Below are positions 5,162 through 27,342 of a stretch of 64,000 bases of DNA, piece by piece; the stretch's first letter is position 1; every line of letters starts with the position of its first letter. The stretch is taken from the UHGV virus genome UHGV-0371537; one strand, given 5' to 3'. Source of the DNA: a virus. Under the pieces are notes generated by a model. That model ran no database searches, was not told where the DNA came from, and saw only the letters and a list, made by a program, of their open reading frames with translations. The translations under genes and the position numbers were made by a program.

Positions 5162-5190
5162 TAATTAAAACAATGGCTTACGTCCTAACA

Positions 5191-5217
5191 AACCCCGCTT
5201 CGGCGGGGTTTTTGTTT
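5191..5217 (+). terminator. rho-independent terminator after major capsid gene
   Basis: AACCCCGC-TTCG-GCGGGGTT then TTTTTGTTTG. Confidence 0.75.
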
Positions 5218-5268
5218 GTTCATAATACCAAACAGGTTATACTAGATACCATACGAAGGAGAACAATT

Positions 5269-6741
5269 ATGTATCAGGTAATCTGTAGTGTCTGTCATGA
5301 ACAGTTCAAAGCATCCAGGAAAGATAAGAAATTTTGTTCAGATGGTTGTAAAACGTTTTCTAGCAACACATTGAAAAATCTATCACCGGAATTTGTTGCT
5401 GATGCGACGTGCCTTTCGGATGAAGAATCTTATCGTCAATTTTTCCATAAACACATGTTCACTAAGAACAATAAATTGGATATTCAGAAATGCAAATCTA
5501 ATTTGTTAATGAAGCACATCAGATTGGACCTGTTGATATTTGCCAACGCCCATAACACCCTACAAGATCTGGCCTGTAAAGTCACAGCATGGTTACACAA
5601 TAGAACCGTGAAAATGTGCCCTGTGTGTTCCAAAGAAACCAACTTTTACATCAATGACAAAGATTACAGAACATATTGTTCCGAAGAATGTTATCAGATT
5701 TCTATGTGTAAAGGCGGGGTTGGTCGGAAAGCTATAGAGGCTTCAAATATATCCAAATATGGGAGCTGCTCTACACTACAACTACCTGGTGTGAGGAAGA
5801 AGGCGTTGATAACATTACAAGAACGTTATGGTGTTGACAATCCCATGAAAAACTCGATCATATTGAAACGTGCATTGTTTAACAATGGTTCTGTCAGGAA
5901 TAAGAAATCTTCTTATGAAAAAGAAATATCCGAGTTCCTCACCTCAATAGGAGTTGTGAACAAGGTTTCTAATTACAGTATATTGTCAGGCAAACAATTG
6001 GATATCTACTGCCCGGAACACAAACTTGCAATAGAATTCAATGGGTTGTACTGGCATTCAGAAGTTTTTAAAGAAAAACGGTATCATCTAGAAAAGACTG
6101 AAATGTGTGAATCTCAGGGTATCCAGTTGATCCATATTTGGGAAGACGAATGGGCTGAGAAACAGGATGTGGTCAAATCTCTTCTGAAGGCAAAACTCGG
6201 CATTAAAACGCCTGTCTCATACGCTCGCCAACATAAAGTTGTTTGGGGTAATATAAACGGTGTGAGGGAGTTTCTAGACGCCCATCATATACAAGGTTCC
6301 GTGTCGTCCACCCACCACTTATCGCTAATTGATAAGGCTGGTGTGATACAGGCCGTGATGTTGTTTACCAAAAGGAAAGATGGCCTGGAATTAGTCAGAT
6401 TTGCCTCTAATGATTGCCACGGGGCGTTCAGTAAACTTCTATCGCACTTCAGAAGGAAATTTGTTGGTGTCCCAATCTATTCTTTTGGCGACAGGTGTGT
6501 CGTAAGCAGGCTGTCGAACATTTACCTATCCCACAGGTTCATAGAAGAGGAAGTACAGAAGCCGGATTACAAATATCACAAGCCTGGTACATTTATGCGT
6601 GAGCACAAGTTCGGTTTCAGAAAAGATTCATTTGCTCGGATGGGTTATGACATAGAAGGCAAAACAGAAAGCCAGTTAGCAACCGAAGCCGGGCTGGTCA
6701 GGATTTGGAATTGTGGTCTGATCAAATATACCTTGAACTAA
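5269..6741 (+). CDS. free-standing homing-endonuclease-like protein: N-terminal CxxC zinc fingers plus PD-(D/E)XK (DUF559/Vsr-like) nuclease core
   Basis: CSVCHEQF, CPVCSKE...CSEECY zinc-finger pairs; LDIYCPEHKLAIEFNGLYWHSE nuclease motif; AAGGAG RBS; sits right after capsid gene where T4 carries segD. Confidence 0.6.
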   Translation: MYQVICSVCHEQFKASRKDKKFCSDGCKTFSSNTLKNLSPEFVADATCLSDEESYRQFFHKHMFTKNNKLDIQKCKSNLLMKHIRLDLLIFANAHNTLQDLACKVTAWLHNRTVKMCPVCSKETNFYINDKDYRTYCSEECYQISMCKGGVGRKAIEASNISKYGSCSTLQLPGVRKKALITLQERYGVDNPMKNSIILKRALFNNGSVRNKKSSYEKEISEFLTSIGVVNKVSNYSILSGKQLDIYCPEHKLAIEFNGLYWHSEVFKEKRYHLEKTEMCESQGIQLIHIWEDEWAEKQDVVKSLLKAKLGIKTPVSYARQHKVVWGNINGVREFLDAHHIQGSVSSTHHLSLIDKAGVIQAVMLFTKRKDGLELVRFASNDCHGAFSKLLSHFRRKFVGVPIYSFGDRCVVSRLSNIYLSHRFIEEEVQKPDYKYHKPGTFMREHKFGFRKDSFARMGYDIEGKTESQLATEAGLVRIWNCGLIKYTLN

Positions 6742-7044: not shown

Positions 7045-7488
7045 ATGTCAAAAGAGAAATACATCTTCATCAGCCCAGCCACGAAGGAGTTCTTTATCTC
7101 CGAAGTGAAAGATCGCGTTGAGAAGTTCCGCTACATGCGCAGCTATGGCCTGGCATCTGGTGAAATCGATTACCAGTCACTGGACAATGATCGCCAAGAT
7201 CTGATTGATGATGGCTGGCGTTTAGTCCCTTCCCCTCAGTATATCCACATCAAGCTGTACTACATGAAGGACAGCGGGAAGTATTACTCTGAAGGCGAAC
7301 TCATCCTCAATCGTGGCGAGGCTGAAGCTGAACCTGCTAAGTCCTGGATGGTCACTATGGATAAAATCCGCTATCTGCTCGACTCAGGCAATTTGCCCGG
7401 TTTGGTTAAAGGTGCCAGGTACGAGGTCTTCGTGACCGGAGAAGGGCATCCAGGTGGTTATCCACATCTGTTCCGCATTAACAACTGA
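7045..7488 (+). CDS. hypothetical protein
   Basis: 147-aa ORF, tightly packed after previous gene; no recognisable motif. Confidence 0.5.
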   Translation: MSKEKYIFISPATKEFFISEVKDRVEKFRYMRSYGLASGEIDYQSLDNDRQDLIDDGWRLVPSPQYIHIKLYYMKDSGKYYSEGELILNRGEAEAEPAKSWMVTMDKIRYLLDSGNLPGLVKGARYEVFVTGEGHPGGYPHLFRINN

Positions 7489-7495
7489 GGTCATC

Positions 7496-7732
7496 ATGAG
7501 AATCAAAAAGATCGGCGCAAGTCCGCTCACTGGGACAATCTTCCAGGGCACCTTGAACACCAAAACCAGCATGTGGGTTGGTGAGAAGACCGACGTGACA
7601 GAGGACTGCGTGGCTGCCACGGCTGAACACATGCGACACATCAATAAAGACTACTGCTTCCCAACGACGGATGGTAAGTTCTTGGTGCTGAGCGCCGAGG
7701 TTCACGAGACCCTTCCTGATCGCTTCAAATAA
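7496..7732 (+). CDS. hypothetical protein
   Basis: 78-aa ORF from ATG 7496 (GAGG RBS); followed by hairpin and promoter. Confidence 0.45.
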   Translation: MRIKKIGASPLTGTIFQGTLNTKTSMWVGEKTDVTEDCVAATAEHMRHINKDYCFPTTDGKFLVLSAEVHETLPDRFK

Positions 7733-8201: not shown

Positions 8202-8546
8202 GTGGCAAACGAAACCAAGGCAACGAAATCTGTGGAGATTCCCCACATCGTCAAGTTCGAAAAGCCGAGCGAGCGTAAACCGCGCAAAACTCGCCGCTTG
8301 GTCACCAAGTTGGACCTCCTGAAACAGAAGTTTGGCAACCACAGTGTGTTCACCCGCATTCGTAATGCATTAAAGGAAGGGCGAACCGAGCTGGAGCTAT
8401 ACCGTCCGAACGGTTCGACACGTGCGTATCAGACCACCGACGGCTTGCTGGAACTGATCCGCCTGAGCGGGATGACGATCGAACCTCGTTCGTCAGGCAC
8501 TCCCCTGTGCTCCCTCTATGTCATCGGCAATCTTGGGGCGCTGTAA
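8202..8546 (+). CDS. hypothetical basic protein
   Basis: 114 aa, GTG start with AGAGGA RBS 8 nt upstream; Lys/Arg-rich N-terminus. Confidence 0.45.
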   Translation: MANETKATKSVEIPHIVKFEKPSERKPRKTRRLVTKLDLLKQKFGNHSVFTRIRNALKEGRTELELYRPNGSTRAYQTTDGLLELIRLSGMTIEPRSSGTPLCSLYVIGNLGAL

Positions 8547-8551
8547 GTTCT

Positions 8552-8974
8552 ATGAAGAAGTATATCGTTGTCATCACTGGTTCCCGCTCAATTACCGAGC
8601 GGGATAAGGTCTTCGCCAAGCTGGATGAACTCCTCGATCCTCATGAAGTCTACACATTGATCGAGGGTGAGGCCAATGGTGTGGACAAGATTTGTCGCGA
8701 TTGGGCTGAAATCAATTATGTTGATGTCACTCCTATGCCGATCCCATCGGGCTATTATGAAAAATATGGCAAAGGGATGGGCAACAAACGCAATCAGGAC
8801 ATGTTAGACAAGGCATTGGATCTCGCTAGGCAGACTAAGCTGGAGGTGTATCCGATTGCGATGTGGGATGGTTCGTCCACTGGCACCCTGGACATGATAA
8901 ACAGGCTGAAGAAGGCAGGTCTCCCTGTGGATATCACTCTGATGGGTAAACCCAAAACCAAGCGCCTTTTGTAA
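8552..8974 (+). CDS. small Rossmann-like protein, possibly SLOG/DprA/LOG superfamily (DUF2493-like)
   Basis: 141 aa; VVITGSRSI, EGEANGVDK, WDGSSTGTLDMI motifs resemble the nucleotide-binding loops of DprA/LOG/SLOG proteins; assignment from memory. Confidence 0.45.
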   Translation: MKKYIVVITGSRSITERDKVFAKLDELLDPHEVYTLIEGEANGVDKICRDWAEINYVDVTPMPIPSGYYEKYGKGMGNKRNQDMLDKALDLARQTKLEVYPIAMWDGSSTGTLDMINRLKKAGLPVDITLMGKPKTKRLL

Positions 8975-9015
8975 CCTGTCATAAATAATCTGAGTTCACA
9001 CAGCGGAGATACATC

Positions 9016-9221: not shown

Positions 9222-9950
9222 ATGAACGCACAGATCTATGACGCCCTTGAGCAGGGTAACGCATTTAACAATCCTCTCCCGTCCCTCAGCAGCACGTCAC
9301 AGGGTTTAATCACCAGTGGTAAGGCGACTACAGCTTCACTGGCTAACACAGGCGATACGCAAATCCAGGGCGCTCTGACGGCAGGTGGGCTTACCACAGC
9401 CAAACTGAACGAAGCAACCACTATGTTCAACTCTGCAGGTACGAGCCTCACCACCCTGAACAACTATGGTGACCAGACTGTCAGTGAAGCATATTCTCGG
9501 ATCGGGACTTCTGTTTCTTACAAATCTGGCCTGAAATCCATAGAGCGCGAGCCAACGAATTGTGATCTGATCAACAATGCATTCGGTGTCATTCAGACCC
9601 TTGGACGCCAGTGGATCGGTGCCATGGAGACCGCTCTCAGCACTGTCACGGCAAAAATGACCGAACTAGCCGAATTAGTAGCGCAGGGTGTGAGCGCAGG
9701 CCTGGCAAAGATCCAGGCGCTGGCTGCTGAGGTCACCGGGTACGTCAACACTGCCATAACTCAGGTCTCCCAGATAGCCCAGGATATTACGAGCGGTATC
9801 GCGGCAGAGCTAGCCCACATACAAGACATGGTTAGCAAGTGTCTGAACTTCTCATTTGCTAACGTCCTGTCTGAGTGGGCTAAAGATCTATGTGCTGGTG
9901 GTGTTATCAACAACATCGGTTCAGATAATCTCAAGAGTGCGCTGAAGTAA
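9222..9950 (+). CDS. hypothetical protein, Thr/Ala/Ser-rich (possibly structural)
   Basis: 242 aa; behind CTAAATACC element and GGTATTTTCTT-ATG context shared with the endolysin gene. Confidence 0.5.
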   Translation: MNAQIYDALEQGNAFNNPLPSLSSTSQGLITSGKATTASLANTGDTQIQGALTAGGLTTAKLNEATTMFNSAGTSLTTLNNYGDQTVSEAYSRIGTSVSYKSGLKSIEREPTNCDLINNAFGVIQTLGRQWIGAMETALSTVTAKMTELAELVAQGVSAGLAKIQALAAEVTGYVNTAITQVSQIAQDITSGIAAELAHIQDMVSKCLNFSFANVLSEWAKDLCAGGVINNIGSDNLKSALK

Positions 9951-10592
9951 TCAACGCTCCCTCGCCGGAAGAACTCCCACTGGCTCGATACCATCCAACA
10001 GTAGGGAGTTCACACCCACATTACTCAGTCTAATCCAGATCGTTCCCCCTGGGTTAACTTCAAAGATATTCATCTCATTCCCAACTGCGTCGTTGTTGAC
10101 AAACACACCCTGGGTTGCGATTCGTACTGGTTTATCTGAGTCATTCATGATTTTGAACGTCACGATTATATCCGATGTTGTACCCAGTCGCCCAACCATG
10201 TGTTGCTTCAGCTTGGCGTAGAATGATGGATTAAAAGTGATGATAATGCTGTTGTTCTGAGAGTAATAAATACTTGCTGATAGGTATGGAATCTTCCCTT
10301 CGTCGCCACGCCGCAGGAGGGGAATCGTGGTCTTCCAGTAAGGCTTGAGGGTGCTCGTGTTCTCCTCGAAGCAACCTAAAGGTACGAGCTTCTGGAAGGT
10401 CTGGAACTCTTGCACGATGATGTCCAGAATACCCTTGTTACAAGTGGGAACACTGGCCGACAACGTCACAGGTACGGTGCGTACTTCTGGGTTCCAGAGT
10501 TCGGAAACAGAAATTATTGGCGTGACAAAGATGCGACAGCTCGTGAGTAAGAGCATCGCGCATGCCAACAACAATCTACTGATCCCGCGCAT
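9951..10592 (-). CDS. predicted lipoprotein (possible envelope or superinfection-exclusion factor)
   Basis: Minus-strand ORF; ATG at 10592 gives MRGISRLLLACAMLLLTSC with lipobox L-T-S-C; convergent with the upstream + gene. Confidence 0.55.
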   Translation of the reverse strand: MRGISRLLLACAMLLLTSCRIFVTPIISVSELWNPEVRTVPVTLSASVPTCNKGILDIIVQEFQTFQKLVPLGCFEENTSTLKPYWKTTIPLLRRGDEGKIPYLSASIYYSQNNSIIITFNPSFYAKLKQHMVGRLGTTSDIIVTFKIMNDSDKPVRIATQGVFVNNDAVGNEMNIFEVNPGGTIWIRLSNVGVNSLLLDGIEPVGVLPARER

Positions 10593-10630
10593 CAGGGTCA
10601 CAAAATATCTCCACAGCAAAAGGTGCTATT

Positions 10631-17952: not shown

Positions 17953-18825
17953 ATGACAACTACATTTTCTAAGAACGTGAATCTGAATCTGGCTTTCGGT
18001 AATGCAAAGGGTGATGTGACGTCGCCCAATTTTGACAAGATCCGCAATCAGGCGAAACTGGTGCTGGAAGAAACCCGTGAACTGCTGGAAGCGGCGTATT
18101 TCGACCACGAGGTGAAAATTGAGTTCACTGCATCTCCGCGAGTCCTGAAAGAACCTGCTGTTGCCGACATCAAAGGCATTATGCGCCAGATTCTGGACGC
18201 TCAGGGCGACATCACAACAGTCAATGACGGCGTGGCTCACATTGCTGGTTTCGACGGCGATGAGTGCCTACAGCGCGTTTATGCTTCCAACATGAGCAAG
18301 TTCGTCCGCAATGCAGCTGAAGTTGTTCCGGCGCTGGAGTATTACTACAACAAAGGCTTCCCGCGTGAAAGCCTGCGCATCGAAGGTGAATTTCCACAGG
18401 CGTGCATCAAAGTGGTGGATACCATCACAATCGACGGCAAAGAGTATCCAGCAGGTAAGTTCCTGAAGAACATGGCGACATTCAAAGAGCCTGACTTCTC
18501 TGATATGCTGACTGCTGAGCCTAAGCGCCAGATCACAGAAATCATCTTGACGGGCACAGCCACTCCAGGCCAGCTTGGCTCAAATGAACATGCTGGTGTC
18601 GCTTTCGCTCCATTCGACTTCGTGGACGAGATCGTAGAATATTCCAAGATGGGCTTCCAGGCGTATTCAGGCGAAGCGATTGAGAGCTACATTCCTGTGT
18701 TTGTTTTTAATGAAGACAACTTCCCAACCCTGCCGATGATCTGGGGTGAATGGAAAGCCAACGTGCGCATTTACGTGGCTAGCCCAGTGCAGTCTTCAAT
18801 CACCCAGCTGACCCGTATCGATTAA
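17953..18825 (+). CDS. hypothetical protein; N-terminus weakly MazG/all-alpha NTP-pyrophosphatase-like (EExxELLEA)
   Basis: 290 aa; LVLEETRELLEA motif only; occupies the slot where T4 carries gene 43. Confidence 0.45.
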   Translation: MTTTFSKNVNLNLAFGNAKGDVTSPNFDKIRNQAKLVLEETRELLEAAYFDHEVKIEFTASPRVLKEPAVADIKGIMRQILDAQGDITTVNDGVAHIAGFDGDECLQRVYASNMSKFVRNAAEVVPALEYYYNKGFPRESLRIEGEFPQACIKVVDTITIDGKEYPAGKFLKNMATFKEPDFSDMLTAEPKRQITEIILTGTATPGQLGSNEHAGVAFAPFDFVDEIVEYSKMGFQAYSGEAIESYIPVFVFNEDNFPTLPMIWGEWKANVRIYVASPVQSSITQLTRID

Positions 18826-18893: not shown

Positions 18894-20093
18894 ATGAAAG
18901 ATAAAGCCCTGGACGTCCCGTACTGCGGTGTCCGCGAAGAAAAGATAAAGTCGGCCAAACCGGTTCTCAGTCCGACCCATACCCGCCTGTCTTATGACTG
19001 GATGAGCGAGCGCTATAAGATCCACGTTCGAAAGGACGTCCAGCGTCTTCCTGCTCCTTGGACGAATAATCCTATACTACGGCAGGTCAAGTTCTGTAAC
19101 GTCCGGAGAGAGCACGACAGGCAGTCTCTTAACCTGATCAACAACATCGTCAACAACGATGCTCTGGGTATGGCAGACAAGATGTTTAACTGCGTGCTGT
19201 TCCGCATGTTCAACCTCTGGGATCCGATCCAGGCTATCGGCGGCGCGATGACGATCAAAGAATTCGCCAAGATTAATCTTGACGCAACCCGTGAACGACT
19301 TCAGAAGTTCGAGGCTGACGGTGGTAAGGTATTCACCAATGCCTTCAACACAGGCGGCCTGAAGCAATGCCTGGCTTTCCCTGAGATGGTTGTCAACCAC
19401 AAGGAGCAGCTCTTCGGTGGGATGATGGTGAAAGTGTATCGCGTTGGCCAGGGTATTGTGGACGAGATGGACTACAAGGTCGCCAAGAAGCTGGTCGAAG
19501 AGAATCCTGGTGAATATACCATCGAGGGATGGGAACCGTACATGCCAATGCGTGTCATCCGTTCCCTGAAGGCATTCGTCAACAAGTATCCAAATTACTT
19601 CCATGACCTGCTGCGCCTTGGTACTCCTCTGGAAGTATACCAGCGCATGTACGACGACATCGAAGGGCTTGGTCCATTCCTGGCTTATCAGATCTGGGTG
19701 GACTTCACGTACATTCCTGAGTATCCGTTTAGTGAGAACCACTTCACGGTTGCTGGACCAGGCTGTCGTGCAGGCATCGACCTGATGTTCCTGAACAAAG
19801 ACGGTATGACCCACGAAGAATGCATCTTCTGGTTACGGGACAACCAGGACGCAGTGTATTCCCAATATGGATATGTTCGTGAGCAATTCTGGTCTGCGGA
19901 AGAGCCTTGGGATCAGTGTATGAATGTTCAACAATTAGAAAACCACTTTTGTGAATTGTCGAAATATACCCGTTGTGTAGAGGCTTTACAGCAAGGTAAA
20001 AAACCGCGCGGGAAGGTTGGATACGATGGGGAAGGACAACCTAAAGCGGCGACATCTGGTTCTAAAAACCTACTAAATTTATTTAAAAAGTAA
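18894..20093 (+). CDS. hypothetical protein (conserved-looking, function unknown)
   Basis: 399 aa, AAGAGGA RBS, preceded by terminator hairpin; no motif I can assign. Confidence 0.5.
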   Translation: MKDKALDVPYCGVREEKIKSAKPVLSPTHTRLSYDWMSERYKIHVRKDVQRLPAPWTNNPILRQVKFCNVRREHDRQSLNLINNIVNNDALGMADKMFNCVLFRMFNLWDPIQAIGGAMTIKEFAKINLDATRERLQKFEADGGKVFTNAFNTGGLKQCLAFPEMVVNHKEQLFGGMMVKVYRVGQGIVDEMDYKVAKKLVEENPGEYTIEGWEPYMPMRVIRSLKAFVNKYPNYFHDLLRLGTPLEVYQRMYDDIEGLGPFLAYQIWVDFTYIPEYPFSENHFTVAGPGCRAGIDLMFLNKDGMTHEECIFWLRDNQDAVYSQYGYVREQFWSAEEPWDQCMNVQQLENHFCELSKYTRCVEALQQGKKPRGKVGYDGEGQPKAATSGSKNLLNLFKK

Positions 20094-24826: not shown

Positions 24827-25681
24827 ATGTTTCGTTTGAAATTGAACGACCAAGATGTGTTCTATAAGCACTTCACCTTCCCAGGTGGTGAGGAACATAT
24901 CAAGATCCAAAAGGCTGGAATCCCTATCGGCCACGTCCAGAACGTGGTGATTGATGCTCACATCAAATCCTCTGCTGACTTCGTTGAGCTGGCACTGCTG
25001 GTTAACGCTGTTCGTGGCCTGGGTAACGTGGACCGTCTGACGGCATTCCATGCATATATCCCGTACTTCCCATATGCGCGTCAGGATCGTCATTGTGACT
25101 TTGGTGAGCCTCTGTCCGTGAAGTGGGCGGCTGAGTTCATCAACAGCATGAACTTTGACCGCGTGGCGATCAAAGACCCTCATAGCCATGTCGTGTCTTC
25201 TCTGATCAACAACGTCCATGTGGTCCCGCAAGATTACATCGTGCGTCAATATCTGGGCTGGTTCATTCGCGGCAACAATGCTGTGCTGGTAGCCCCTGAC
25301 GGCGGCGCGGCGAAGAAGACCGAAGCCCTCAGCCTGTCATTGGACGGCGTTCCTGTTGTCTACGGACACAAGAACCGTGACACCAAGACTGGTGAGATCA
25401 TTGGGGTGAGTATTACAAACCCTGAACTGATCAAAGACCGCTATCTGGTTGTGGTTGATGATATCTGCGACGGTGGGCGCACGTTTGTTGAGCTGGGCAA
25501 AGAGCTTCAGAAGCACGAGCCTAAGCACATGACGCTCTTCGTCACCCATGGCATCTTCAGCAAAGGTCTCTCTGTTTTCGACGGGATCTATGATGCTGTG
25601 TATGCCGACACTGTCTGGTGGGAGAACATCACCGCCGACGGTCTTCCTTTCAAAACTGAAAATACAGGACGTGTAAAATGA
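24827..25681 (+). CDS. ribose-phosphate pyrophosphokinase (Prs) homolog; candidate ADP-ribose pyrophosphate synthetase (Adps) of an NAD+ reconstitution pathway
   Basis: IPYFPYARQDR and VVVDDICDGGRTF match Prs motifs (E. coli IPYFGYARQDRR, VLVDDMIDTGGTL); 4-nt overlap with downstream NAMPT-like gene. Confidence 0.8.
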   Translation: MFRLKLNDQDVFYKHFTFPGGEEHIKIQKAGIPIGHVQNVVIDAHIKSSADFVELALLVNAVRGLGNVDRLTAFHAYIPYFPYARQDRHCDFGEPLSVKWAAEFINSMNFDRVAIKDPHSHVVSSLINNVHVVPQDYIVRQYLGWFIRGNNAVLVAPDGGAAKKTEALSLSLDGVPVVYGHKNRDTKTGEIIGVSITNPELIKDRYLVVVDDICDGGRTFVELGKELQKHEPKHMTLFVTHGIFSKGLSVFDGIYDAVYADTVWWENITADGLPFKTENTGRVK

Positions 25682-27342
25682 GCATGCGCCACTTAGATCC
25701 GATCCATGCAATCGACTTCTACAAATCAGGGCACATCTATCAGTTCCCTGAAGGCAGCGAGCTGGTGTTCTCCAACGGAACTCCGCGCTCCAACAAACTG
25801 TTCAACTCTCACCTGCCGAAGAACGGCGTGGTGGTCTGGGGCATCCAGGGCTTCATGACTTGGTTCCATGAACTGTTTGACGAAGCATTCTTCCAGCGCC
25901 CGAAGGCCAAGGTGTTGAAGAAGTATGCCCGTCGCATGAACAAAGTCCTGGGTCCAGGTCGTGTTGGTACAGAGCATATTGAAGCCCTGCATGACCTCGG
26001 CTACCTGCCTATCGAAGTCCGTGCGCTGCCCGAAGGCACCATGTGTCCGTATGGCGTTCCGGTGTATGTGATGTTCAACACCTTGCCGGAGTTCTACTGG
26101 CTGACCAACTATCTGGAGACTGTGTTCAGCTCTGAGATCTGGAAGCCGATGACGAACGCCACCATCGCCCTGCATTACAAGGCACTGATGGTGAAAGCCG
26201 CTATCGCTACAGGTGTGTCGCCGGACCATTGGTTCATCGACTACCAAGGCCACGACTTCTCCTTCCGTGGCATGAGCGGGTGGCATGACGCGGCGTCTTC
26301 CGGTTCCGGCCATTTGGTATTCTTCAAAGGCACCGATACCAACCCTGCCCTGGACTTCGTAGAAGAGTATTATGGCGCAGACATCGACGAAGACTATGTC
26401 GTTGCTGGTTCTGTTGCGGCTACCGAACACGCCGTGATGTGTATGGGCACGAAGGATGGTGAATTCGAAACCTTCCGCCGCCTGGTGCAGGACGTGTATC
26501 CTGATGGCATCGTCAGTATCGTATCTGATGCATGGGATTACTGGCAGGTCATCGACGACTATCTCCCTCGCCTGAAAGACATTATCATGGCGCGTAACGG
26601 TAAAGTCGTGATCCGCCCCGACTCGGGCGACCCAGTACACATCGTTGGCGGCTACCGCATCGAGGGGTTCAAAGACCGCGCCACGCTGAACATCAGCGGC
26701 GTGTCTAGCAGCACCGAAGTCATTCACATCGAAGAGACGAACACCTATCACCTGATCACAGGCGAAGGCACGATCAATTCTCTGATGGCAGACGACCGTA
26801 ATATCATCAGCCGTTCTGAAGCAGTCGGCTCTATCCAGCGCCTGTGGGAGATCTTTGGCGGTACTCAAACTGAGACTGGTCACTTCCTTTTGGATGATCA
26901 CATCGGTCTGATCTACGGCGACTCCATCACCCTGGCACGTGAAGACCAGATCTTTAGCCGTCTGGCTGGCCGGAACTTCGCTTCCATCAACGTGGTGTTC
27001 GGTATCGGTTCCTACACCTACCAGATGAACACCCGTGACAGTACTGGCACGGCAGTGAAAGCCACGGCTGGTAAAGTGAACGGCGAATTCCGTGAGATCT
27101 TCAAAGAGCCGAAGACCGACAAAGGCGGGACTAAAAAGTCTGCACGTGGTTTCCTTAAAGTCATTAAAGACTCTCAGGGTAAACTAGTGTTGGTTGACGG
27201 TATCACCTTTGATCAGGTACAAGACGCCGACAACCAGCACCAACTGGTGTATCGTGATGGTAAGTTCTTCAACACTCAGACTCTGGAAGATGCGCGTGTT
27301 CGTGCTGCTCCTCTGGTGGCGGAACTGGCCTCACAAATCTGA
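25678..27342 (+). CDS. nicotinamide phosphoribosyltransferase (NAMPT) homolog; candidate nicotinamide ADP-ribose transferase (Namat)
   Basis: 554 aa; N-terminal AIDFYKSGHIYQF resembles the NAMPT DSYK region; family call from memory; no NMNAT (HxGH) gene seen nearby. Confidence 0.75.
   Translation: MSMRHLDPIHAIDFYKSGHIYQFPEGSELVFSNGTPRSNKLFNSHLPKNGVVVWGIQGFMTWFHELFDEAFFQRPKAKVLKKYARRMNKVLGPGRVGTEHIEALHDLGYLPIEVRALPEGTMCPYGVPVYVMFNTLPEFYWLTNYLETVFSSEIWKPMTNATIALHYKALMVKAAIATGVSPDHWFIDYQGHDFSFRGMSGWHDAASSGSGHLVFFKGTDTNPALDFVEEYYGADIDEDYVVAGSVAATEHAVMCMGTKDGEFETFRRLVQDVYPDGIVSIVSDAWDYWQVIDDYLPRLKDIIMARNGKVVIRPDSGDPVHIVGGYRIEGFKDRATLNISGVSSSTEVIHIEETNTYHLITGEGTINSLMADDRNIISRSEAVGSIQRLWEIFGGTQTETGHFLLDDHIGLIYGDSITLAREDQIFSRLAGRNFASINVVFGIGSYTYQMNTRDSTGTAVKATAGKVNGEFREIFKEPKTDKGGTKKSARGFLKVIKDSQGKLVLVDGITFDQVQDADNQHQLVYRDGKFFNTQTLEDARVRAAPLVAELASQI

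Follow-up and report, generated by a model that had tools for sequence, protein, structure and literature searches.

Gene and locus

The window, that is, the whole 64-kb stretch of viral DNA analyzed here, contains a gene for a small stand-alone protein of the SLOG superfamily, closely preceded by a short basic reading frame.

8202..8546, plus strand: upstream basic ORF of 114 aa, PHROG_4663 (function unknown), with its stop 5 nt before the SLOG start
8552..8974, plus strand: SLOG coding sequence (stand-alone YAcAr protein, PF10686, formerly DUF2493), 140 aa, stop codon included in the coordinates

The SLOG reading frame extends from an ATG at 8552 to a TAA at 8972-8974 and comprises 423 nt, equivalent to 140 aa and the stop. 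The earlier note had described a 141-aa protein at this place; the reading frame is real, and the figure of 141 counts the stop codon. An alternative GTG start at 8507, present in a mechanical list of reading frames, would give a 155-aa form, which is annotated in two database entries. This start is unsupported, since the homologues, nearly all of which are 138-147 aa long and have the Met of 8552 as their first residue, match the downstream start in both length and position.

The gene is real and well conserved, with matches at a level beyond chance. Relatives are found by tblastn across 498 phage records, and the exact protein sequence is already present in public assemblies. Compared with the orthologue of Yersinia phage CAU_YEP3, to which the protein is 97% identical, dN/dS amounts to 0.069, and the gene is under strong purifying selection. 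The protein is also kept in Kuttervirus (76% identity) and in Erwinia phage Bue1 (45%), where synonymous sites are saturated.

The window belongs to an Ackermannviridae phage, with a 5-kb region that shares 85-89% DNA identity with Agtrevirus/Limestonevirus-type phages. The gene order starts with the major capsid gene, a homing endonuclease (present here) and five small genes, reaches SLOG, a 55-aa ORF and a DUF7217 structural protein, and continues with DUF7424 (minus strand), a gp3-like tail completion protein, UvsY, a PD-(D/E)XK exonuclease and the UvsW helicase. The SLOG gene is located 2-3 kb upstream of the last three. An identical order in a Kuttervirus and in Erwinia phage Bue1 makes it syntenic in three lineages. 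Homologues of the SLOG protein occur in ∼263 phage records (at least 60% identity), compared with ∼278 for the capsid protein (at least 80%) and 271 for DUF7217 (at least 60%), these figures being counts and not matched lists. The gene thus appears to be nearly a core gene of the Ackermannviridae. DUF7217 also occurs in Felixounavirus-like phages of ∼86-90 kb, in which the tblastn counts give no sign of a SLOG homologue.

The 114-aa ORF and the SLOG gene are probably co-transcribed, given the 5-nt gap and the lack of any promoter- or terminator-like site between them in a scan for sigma-70 promoters and terminators. The two genes are arranged alike in Kuttervirus ST2; in Erwinia phage Bue1 they lie 163 nt apart. 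The T4-type late promoter TATAAATA has two matches in the 64 kb, neither of them near the SLOG gene, and CTAAATAC, although mildly enriched (4 occurrences versus 0.87 expected), has no copy immediately before the gene. No Ackermannviridae transcriptome was found in the literature.

Family assignment and fold

The protein is a member of the YAcAr/DUF2493 family within the SLOG superfamily. Its score with Pfam PF10686 (YAcAr, ‘YspA, cpYpsA-related SLOG family’, formerly DUF2493) is 44.3 bits (E 1.6e-11), above the gathering cut-off of 28.2, with aa 5-60 aligned on profile positions 2-57 of 66, and the homologues also carry precomputed PF10686 assignments. Among the other profiles that the earlier note had proposed for comparison, DprA (PF02481) comes second and below threshold, with 10.8 bits (E 0.28) where the cut-off is 29.6, and LOG (PF03641) gives no match. 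An NCBIfam search yields nothing significant, a single-sequence search against PDB sequences nothing meaningful, and PADLOC, which covers defence systems, only an insignificant PsyrA match (E 0.041). The family was reportedly defined computationally by Burroughs and colleagues in 2015.

Structure prediction leads to the same assignment. The AlphaFold2 model, computed from a 26-sequence alignment, is confident (pLDDT 93.2) and shows a SLOG-type Rossmannoid fold with the order b1-a1-b2-a2-b3-a3-b4-a4-b5. Its top structural matches are all SLOG folds, namely YpsA, DprA, ShosA, the SLOG domain of ThsA and LOG, and Foldseek places DprA first. The protein therefore belongs to the SLOG superfamily (Rossmannoid, TIR-DrHyd-SLOG clade). 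A nucleoside 2-deoxyribosyltransferase (PF05014, with its catalytic Glu), which the earlier note had named as the competing assignment, is not the best match. From the label ‘SLOG/DprA/LOG-type’ given to the protein at first reading, SLOG holds, through the PF10686 score and the SLOG-only structural matches, and so do the DprA-like motifs; the LOG motif is missing.

This classification is correct but already known, as Pfam, UniRef and NCBI all name the protein cluster DUF2493 or SLOG. In the 90% cluster of the protein, the 93 members are named ‘DUF2493 domain-containing protein’, ‘SLOG family protein’ or ‘GTP-binding domain’. The last of these labels, used in GenBank and PHROGs, is baseless because the motifs of P-loop GTPases are absent from the protein, which has neither a Walker A motif (G-x4-G-K-S/T) nor N/T-K-x-D. 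Its source is PHROG_289, which matches the SLOG protein at E 1.7e-38 and is a 500-column composite profile that also spans the unrelated DUF7217 neighbor. A fusion of SLOG with DUF7217, as this composite might suggest, is not found among 579 phage records.

A conserved pocket resembling that of DprA

Conservation was established on 120 family representatives with at most 50% mutual identity. The resulting family motifs are G-S-R, G-x-A-x-G-x-D, A-G-x-x-R-N-x-x-M and W-D-G-x-S-x-G-T, and they correspond to the following segments, given with the conservation of their residues in this set.

8567..8590, plus strand: motif 1, VVITGSRS (aa 6-13), strand 1 and the G10-S11-R12 loop; G10 100%, S11 90%, R12 99%
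8663..8686, plus strand: motif 2, EGEANGVD (aa 38-45), the G39-x-A41-x-G43-x-D45 loop after strand 2; G39, G43 and D45 invariant, A41 93%
8756..8803, plus strand: motif 3, family consensus W-x6-A-G-x-x-R-N-x-x-M, with the R-N dyad in helix a3 of the model; R80 and N81 100%, M84 99%, A76 98% (Met here), G77 97%, W69 94% (Tyr here)
8864..8899, plus strand: motif 4, WDGSSTGTLDMI, loop after strand 4, of G-T phosphate type, including WDGSSTGT (aa 105-112, 8864-8887); S109 and G111 100%, W105 and T112 97%, G107 95%, D106 94%, I116 88%, M115 85%

The three motifs quoted at first reading, VVITGSRS, EGEANGVD and WDGSSTGT, are all found at their places by direct check of the sequence. Eight positions (G10, G39, G43, D45, R80, N81, S109 and G111) are invariant in the 120 relatives and kept in the window protein. 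A further set, made up of S11, R12, A41, A52, W69, A76, G77, M84, A103, W105, D106, G107 and T112, is conserved to at least 90%, and the only deviations of the window protein at near-invariant positions are W69 to Tyr and A76 to Met. The four loops that carry these residues (GSR, GxAxGxD, Y/W..AGxxRN and WDGxSxGT), located at the C-terminal ends of the strands, would form one pocket able to receive a base and a ribose-phosphate. As judged from the model, this conserved pocket is the crevice for ligands by which the TIR-DrHyd-SLOG clade is defined, and it very likely binds a nucleotide-like unit composed of base and ribose-phosphate.

Among solved structures, the best Foldseek and profile matches are DprA (HpDprA 4LJR, SpDprA 3UQZ) and ShosA (8ZVA), an antitoxin of the Shosta system that binds ssDNA. 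A search of PDB sequences with the family profile finds only DprA (E 0.0025-0.005) and one MCP-like protein, and detects neither LOG nor ThsA. The motifs G-S/T-R, SGxAxGxD, R-N and DGxSxG are common to DprA, ShosA and the SLOG protein. In DprA, the ssDNA-binding signature consists of G-S/T/A-R and F/L/Y-x-x-R-N/D (or A-M-x-R-N/D), and in HpDprA Arg52 gates the pocket while Tyr108, Arg143, Asn144 and Gly164 hold a flipped thymine of ssDNA (Wang et al. 2014, PMC3950713). HMMER aligns G10-S11-R12 with the GTR of HpDprA, in agreement with a correspondence to its Gly50-Arg52, and R80-N81 correspond to the Arg143-Asn144 base-pocket dyad. The aromatic residue at position 69 and the Gly after strand 4 plausibly match Tyr108 and Gly164. 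Motif 2 aligns with ‘SGGALGVD’ of HpDprA and ‘SGLAKGID’ of SpDprA, for which the general DprA form is SGGAxG(I/V)D, and motif 4 resembles ‘DGLSDG’ of SpDprA. The second part of the DprA signature is only partly present: R80-N81 are there, but the residue three positions before the Arg is Gly77, where DprA has an aromatic one, and the family pattern is A-G-x-x-R-N, with neither an aromatic residue nor Ala-Met.

These likenesses have their limits. DprA and ShosA have nine strands, while the SLOG protein has five and a core of ∼130 aa; the Rossmann domain of DprA, with its extended sheet, covers ∼200 aa, so that the SLOG protein is about half its size, and it lacks the SAM and C-terminal domains. 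The surfaces of DprA and ShosA are positively charged, whereas the core of the SLOG protein is acidic (pI 5.4, compared with 8.6 for the whole protein). The score below the Pfam threshold, the five strands instead of nine, the absence of accessory domains and the acidic core together place it outside the DprA family. Sequence comparison instead suggests a half-size DprA-like pocket, in effect a ‘mini-DprA’.

A true DprA-type recombination mediator, which would coat ssDNA and load the phage UvsX together with UvsY or as its backup, is accordingly a highly improbable description. The motifs in common with DprA speak for it, as do the proximity of UvsY, exonuclease and UvsW genes and the suggestion that DprA-like proteins act as extra ssDNA binders in jumbo phages (Iyer et al. 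2021). It is opposed by the lack of the nine-stranded extended sheet and of the extra DprA domains, by the weak Pfam score and by the acidic core. Moreover, many phages that carry YAcAr have no recombinase nearby, and for the apparently related protein ORF83 of phage PhiDruSM1, discussed below, the residues for dimerization and RecA binding are reportedly missing and AF3 gives no RecA complex.

Motif 4 is the analogue of PGGxGTxxE, the motif with the catalytic Glu in LOG enzymes (PF03641). Neither this pattern nor GxGTxxE occurs in the SLOG protein, which reads W-D-G-S-S-T-G-T-L-D-M and has Met115 at the position of the Glu, as in 85% of the family. A LOG-like mononucleotide phosphoribohydrolase would cut the N-glycosidic bond of AMP or of (modified) NMP/dNMP and thereby reshape nucleotide pools, with a modified nucleotide as a possible substrate in this thymidine-hypermodifying phage. 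Such an activity is quite unlikely in view of the missing motif, the lack of a PF03641 match and the failure of the family profile to find the LOG sequences in PDB; a role in pool metabolism would also leave unexplained the fusions of YAcAr to helicase, NADAR and Macro domains described hereafter.

Genomic contexts of the YAcAr family

In a profile search that covered 1.84 billion representative proteins, YAcAr clusters number 31,183 at E<=1e-3 and 14,116 at the stricter limit of E<=1e-10. Stand-alone proteins of 113-150 aa, mostly from phages, make up the majority, and the window protein is no different in this respect. Two themes recur in their contexts, namely DNA machinery and ADP-ribose processing, as had already been observed (Iyer et al. 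2021; Iyer et al. 2022, PMC9503650).

The first theme includes C-terminal fusions of YAcAr to SF1B helicases (ICP1 HelB and Pseudoalteromonas phage H101) and a fusion to an SF2 helicase (P0185). The latter was considered as a UvsW orthologue, an identification that was rejected because the similarity is weak and local (E 6e-4). In Vibrio T4-like jumbo phages, Dda lies directly downstream of the YAcAr gene, and in a Pseudomonas phage the YAcAr gene itself follows DnaC. Gordonia phage Forza has it flanked by Pol I and exonuclease/RecA, and in a cluster-A-type mycobacteriophage it is surrounded by genes for a DnaB-like helicase, a PRTase, a hydrolase, endonuclease VII and a primase. The domains that occur most often beside YAcAr in 77 diverse IMG/VR contigs are DNA methylase, RNR, topoisomerase, ThyX, 5′-3′ exonuclease and PRTase; no partner dominates, since any one domain is shared by at most 4 of 149 neighbors, and these neighborhood statistics are weak. 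The contigs of two metagenomic homologues show only short phage contexts.

The second theme is represented by the fusions NADAR(DarT1-type)-3xYAcAr-DUF4326, NADAR-YAcAr and YAcAr-Macro, and by an N4-like early locus in which YAcAr accompanies DUF4326 and an ADP-ribosylglycohydrolase. The recurrence of these fusions (NADAR twice, Macro and DUF4326), together with the N4-like locus, points to a ligand of ADP-ribose type over plain DNA and, at the level of the family, keeps the link with ADP-ribose alive.

NAD-related genes and immune signals

Two genes related to NAD salvage lie further along the window.

24827-25681: PRPP-synthetase-like gene
25678-27342: NAPRTase-family gene

The earlier note had seen in such NAD-related content a fit with a protein that binds or sequesters nucleotide-derived immune signals. 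The fit does not hold. The pair (24827-27342) is found in ∼86 phage records at 90% identity or more and is missing from the syntenic site of CAU_YEP3, in which the SLOG gene is present, while the SLOG gene is about as widespread as the capsid gene. These differing distributions show the two to be unlinked, and the NAD-salvage pair is accessory and independent of the SLOG gene.

An immune-signal antagonist would use its pocket to sequester a messenger derived from NAD+ or ADP-ribose (cADPR isomers, ADPR derivatives), or would cleave the 1′-ribosyl-adenine bond of such a messenger, and thus blunt Thoeris/TIR-type signaling. The idea is already a published prediction: Iyer et al. 2022 (PMC9503650) proposed that viral SLOG domains bind ADPr-derived signals or break them down. 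An experimental test of this prediction was not found in the literature, and a mention of SLOG was not found in that on signal sponges of the Tad1/2, Acb2/4 and TadIV-1 type. For the window protein this function is unlikely. The ThsA SLOG domain (7UXS, 3′cADPR-bound) is fused to a SIR2 effector, whereas no effector or signal-generating partner stands beside the window protein; a ThsA-type (STALD) cADPR-sensing SLOG combines recognition of 3′cADPR with an attached effector domain (SIR2, TIR or another), and the window protein does not match this type. In the ∼88% of the closest relative's record that the analysis covered, no Macro, NADAR, TIR or SIR2 partner is annotated, and none that would process ADPr. 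The sequence profile finds DprA and not ThsA-type SLOG domains, and a profile relationship is undetectable with both ThsA and YpsA (2NX2), the latter having a GxD/E signature. In addition, the PADLOC search gives no meaningful match, the gene is present independently of the NAD-salvage pair, and in the Ackermannviridae it is widely retained and syntenic in a structural/recombination region and does not belong to a variable island of early accessory genes.

A counter-defence phenotype in a Queuovirinae phage

The only functional data found that bear on the family come from PhiDruSM1, a Queuovirinae phage of 60 kb whose ORF83 is annotated as DprA/Smf-like; in a preprint screen, phages deleted for ORF83 are viable and show reduced plating on cells with AVAST type III, and deletion of ORF55 (DNA ligase), ORF72 or ORF84 has the same effect (Ojima et al. 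2024 bioRxiv). In a second preprint (EVADES 2025 bioRxiv), AMP is modeled in an ORF83 site formed by R89, N90, T112 and D114, ORF83 is described as lacking the residues of DprA for dimerization and RecA binding, with no RecA complex predicted by AF3, and homologues fused to DUF4326 are reported in amoeba viruses. ORF83 appears to be a YAcAr protein. This equation is made through CSP1C_082, a Queuovirinae-type homologue found by tblastn, which matches PF10686 at E 1.5e-17, is 31% identical to the window protein (BLASTP E 4e-21) and has an identically numbered set R89/N90/T112/D114, aligned with R80/N81/T112/D114 of the window protein; its basis is the shared residue numbering together with taxonomy, and not a comparison with the ORF83 sequence itself. 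Binding or activity data were not found in the literature for any YAcAr protein.

AVAST III is not known to use a diffusible signal. The system is described as having a nuclease effector (EVADES preprint). As the phenotype is common to a DNA ligase and concerns defence by a nuclease effector, tolerance of DNA damage fits better than sequestration of a signal. The one known counter-defence phenotype therefore also counts against an immune-signal antagonist. The proposal that the SLOG protein binds or sequesters immune signals thus finds no support specific to its locus, the pocket being DprA-like and the phenotype directed at nuclease-type defence, and a sponge for cyclic immune signals is less likely than a function in DNA metabolism.

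Transfer from ORF83 to the window protein has to take several differences into account. ORF83 is dispensable and located in a block of small early/accessory genes, whereas the window gene is widely retained and stands between capsid and tail/recombination genes. As seen in CSP1C_082, ORF83 would carry GGR and FPGGAGT, which is more LOG-like, and no basic tail, as opposed to GSR and WDGSSTGT in the window protein.

Proposed role in phage DNA metabolism

We infer the identity of the ligand, any catalysis, the function of the tail and the role in vivo from the evidence assembled above. The SLOG protein would bind a nucleotide unit in a mode that would mirror the way DprA holds a flipped thymine. 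This unit would most probably be part of phage DNA that is single-stranded or damaged/adducted; a free mononucleotide may be bound instead. The protein would assist the replication, recombination or repair of phage DNA as an accessory factor and help the phage to tolerate attack by the host. For this phage, a unit on ssDNA or on damaged/adducted DNA, with an accessory function in replication, recombination or repair that also serves counter-defence, is a plausible but tentative reading.

Several observations argue for such a DNA binder: the conservation to 99-100% of R12 and R80-N81, which correspond to the ssDNA-binding motifs of DprA; the helicase fusions and the DNA-machinery neighbors; and the synteny near UvsY, exonuclease and UvsW with a spread similar to that of the capsid gene. 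Others count against it, namely the acidic core, which differs from the surfaces of DprA and ShosA, the half-DprA size taken together with the dimerization and RecA residues reportedly missing from ORF83 and its predicted binding of AMP, and the fusions and N4-like locus that point to a ligand of ADP-ribose type.

The two themes of the family could be reconciled if YAcAr proteins were readers or N-glycosidases for base-linked phosphoribosyl or ADP-ribosyl adducts, of DarT type or similar, on single-stranded phage DNA. This proposal is speculative and distinctly improbable. If true, it would unite the fusions to NADAR (DarT1-type), Macro, DUF4326 and helicases with the DprA-like pocket and the ligase-like counter-defence phenotype, and the tail of the Ackermannviridae proteins would dock a repair-type counter-defence factor on the replisome or on ssDNA.

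YAcAr proteins, which come mostly from phages, fall into ∼31,000 clusters at 50% identity and share eight invariant residues. Once the choice between ssDNA nucleotides, AMP and ADP-ribose derivatives is shown, a function would follow for very many phage genes called ‘hypothetical’, and the labels ‘GTP-binding domain’, ‘chromosome segregation protein’ and ‘DprA’ could be corrected. The Ackermannviridae member offers a good experimental entry, as these phages have been isolated widely and are under study as control agents; its gene is widely retained and single-copy, and its extra invariant tail should help to identify a partner.

The C-terminal tail and other features of the Ackermannviridae clade

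The Ackermannviridae proteins end in a basic extension that is missing from the rest of the YAcAr family.

8942..8971, plus strand: basic C-terminal tail MGKPKTKRLL, clade-specific and predicted to be disordered (from alignment and pLDDT)

The tail, as LMGKPKTKRLL, is near-invariant in 16 of 16 Ackermannviridae-type homologues, down to an overall identity of 44%. AlphaFold2 confidence falls to a mean pLDDT of 56 in the block of aa 131-140 and below 50 for aa 136-140. The motif does not occur at other C-termini encoded in the window or in CAU_YEP3. Conserved and predicted to be disordered, the tail is likely to act as a short linear motif for binding to a partner or to nucleic acid; it would tether the SLOG protein to DNA or to a partner in the replisome or in recombination.

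The clade differs from the rest of the family in other respects as well. Helix a3 has a 9-residue extension (aa 89-97) that other YAcAr proteins lack, and position 69 is Tyr in the clade, in place of the family Trp. At position 76, Ala in the family, the Met of the window protein is also found in the CAU_YEP3 orthologue.

The C-terminal tail and the naming of the SLOG protein

The SLOG protein, a member of the YAcAr family, ends in a decapeptide for which disorder is predicted.

8942-8971, + strand: tail MGKPKTKRLL of the SLOG protein, aa 131-140

The pattern L[ML]GKPK[TS]KRL[LI] is nearly invariant in all 16 of 16 Ackermannviridae-type homologues, down to 44% overall identity, and tails of this type were found neither in the remaining YAcAr family nor in any other ORF examined. 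The tail is probably a docking motif.

Several names attached to this protein or its homologues are annotation artefacts. The label 'GTP-binding domain' belongs to PHROG_289, a composite profile of 500 columns in which columns 20-146 are matched by the SLOG protein (8552-8974) and columns 259-500 by the unrelated DUF7217 structural protein (9222-9950). The same holds for 'chromosome segregation protein' and 'threonine-tRNA ligase', which are among the GenBank names of the homologues.

Neighbours of YAcAr homologues in other phages

The Queuovirinae homologue in the Escherichia phage CSP1C record (L004) is directly followed by a gene labelled 'DprA' in GenBank, the product of which has no match in Pfam.

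L004:3998-4390: YAcAr homologue
L004:4394-4864: CSP1C_083, directly 3' of the homologue

Deletion of the adjacent gene in PhiDruSM1, ORF84, gives the strongest phenotype towards the defence system AVAST III, with an EOP of 10^-4 (Ojima et al. 2024 preprint). The Queuovirinae homologue and the gene directly downstream may act jointly. In Mycobacterium phage SheldonCooper (gp60-63; L006), the YAcAr homologue adjoins a 'hydrolase' and lies two genes from a phosphoribosyltransferase (PRTase), and PRTase domains were seen twice among YAcAr neighbours on IMG/VR contigs. This proximity recalls the pairings of YpsA with a PRTase and of ShosT (PRTase) with the DprA-like antitoxin ShosA.

Genomic setting and phage type

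The SLOG gene is surrounded by genes assigned to newly created Pfam DUFs, of which DUF7217 is common to Felixounavirus-looking phages of ~86-90 kb, at 24-32% identity.

7454-7732: DUF7446 gene
9222-9950: DUF7217 gene
9951-10619, - strand: DUF7424 gene

By synteny, genes 18894-20093 and 17953-18825 correspond to the annotated aGPT-Pplase and NTP pyrophosphohydrolase, respectively, of Yersinia phage CAU_YEP3, which suggests a thymidine-hypermodifying phage.

Two adjacent, overlapping genes resemble the phage NAD+-reconstitution pair of ADPR-pyrophosphate synthetase and nicotinamide ADPR-transferase.

24827-25681: PRPP-synthetase-like gene (Pribosyltran)
25678-27342: NAPRTase-family gene

The pair is 99.6% identical to that of Shigella phage MK-13. 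Since only ~86 phage records carry it at ≥90% identity and it is missing from the syntenic site of CAU_YEP3, it constitutes an accessory island.

Candidate promoter motif and insertion site

The motif CTAAATAC occurs four times on the + strand of the window, against 0.87 expected, and is a candidate phage promoter motif.

2841, 9187, 12369 and 48929, + strand: CTAAATAC

At least the first two copies are intergenic, just 5' of the starts of the scaffold and DUF7217 genes. A variant, CATAAATA, lies at ~8979-8986, 5' of a 55-aa ORF. The window contains virtually no copies of the T4 late consensus TATAAATA.

The major capsid gene is directly followed by a homing-endonuclease ORF.

5173-6741: HNH/homing-endonuclease ORF, 522 aa (PHROG_3339, E 5e-157)

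The same site holds only small hypothetical genes in CAU_YEP3 and a shorter, different homing endonuclease in Kuttervirus ST2; it is a mobile insertion hotspot.
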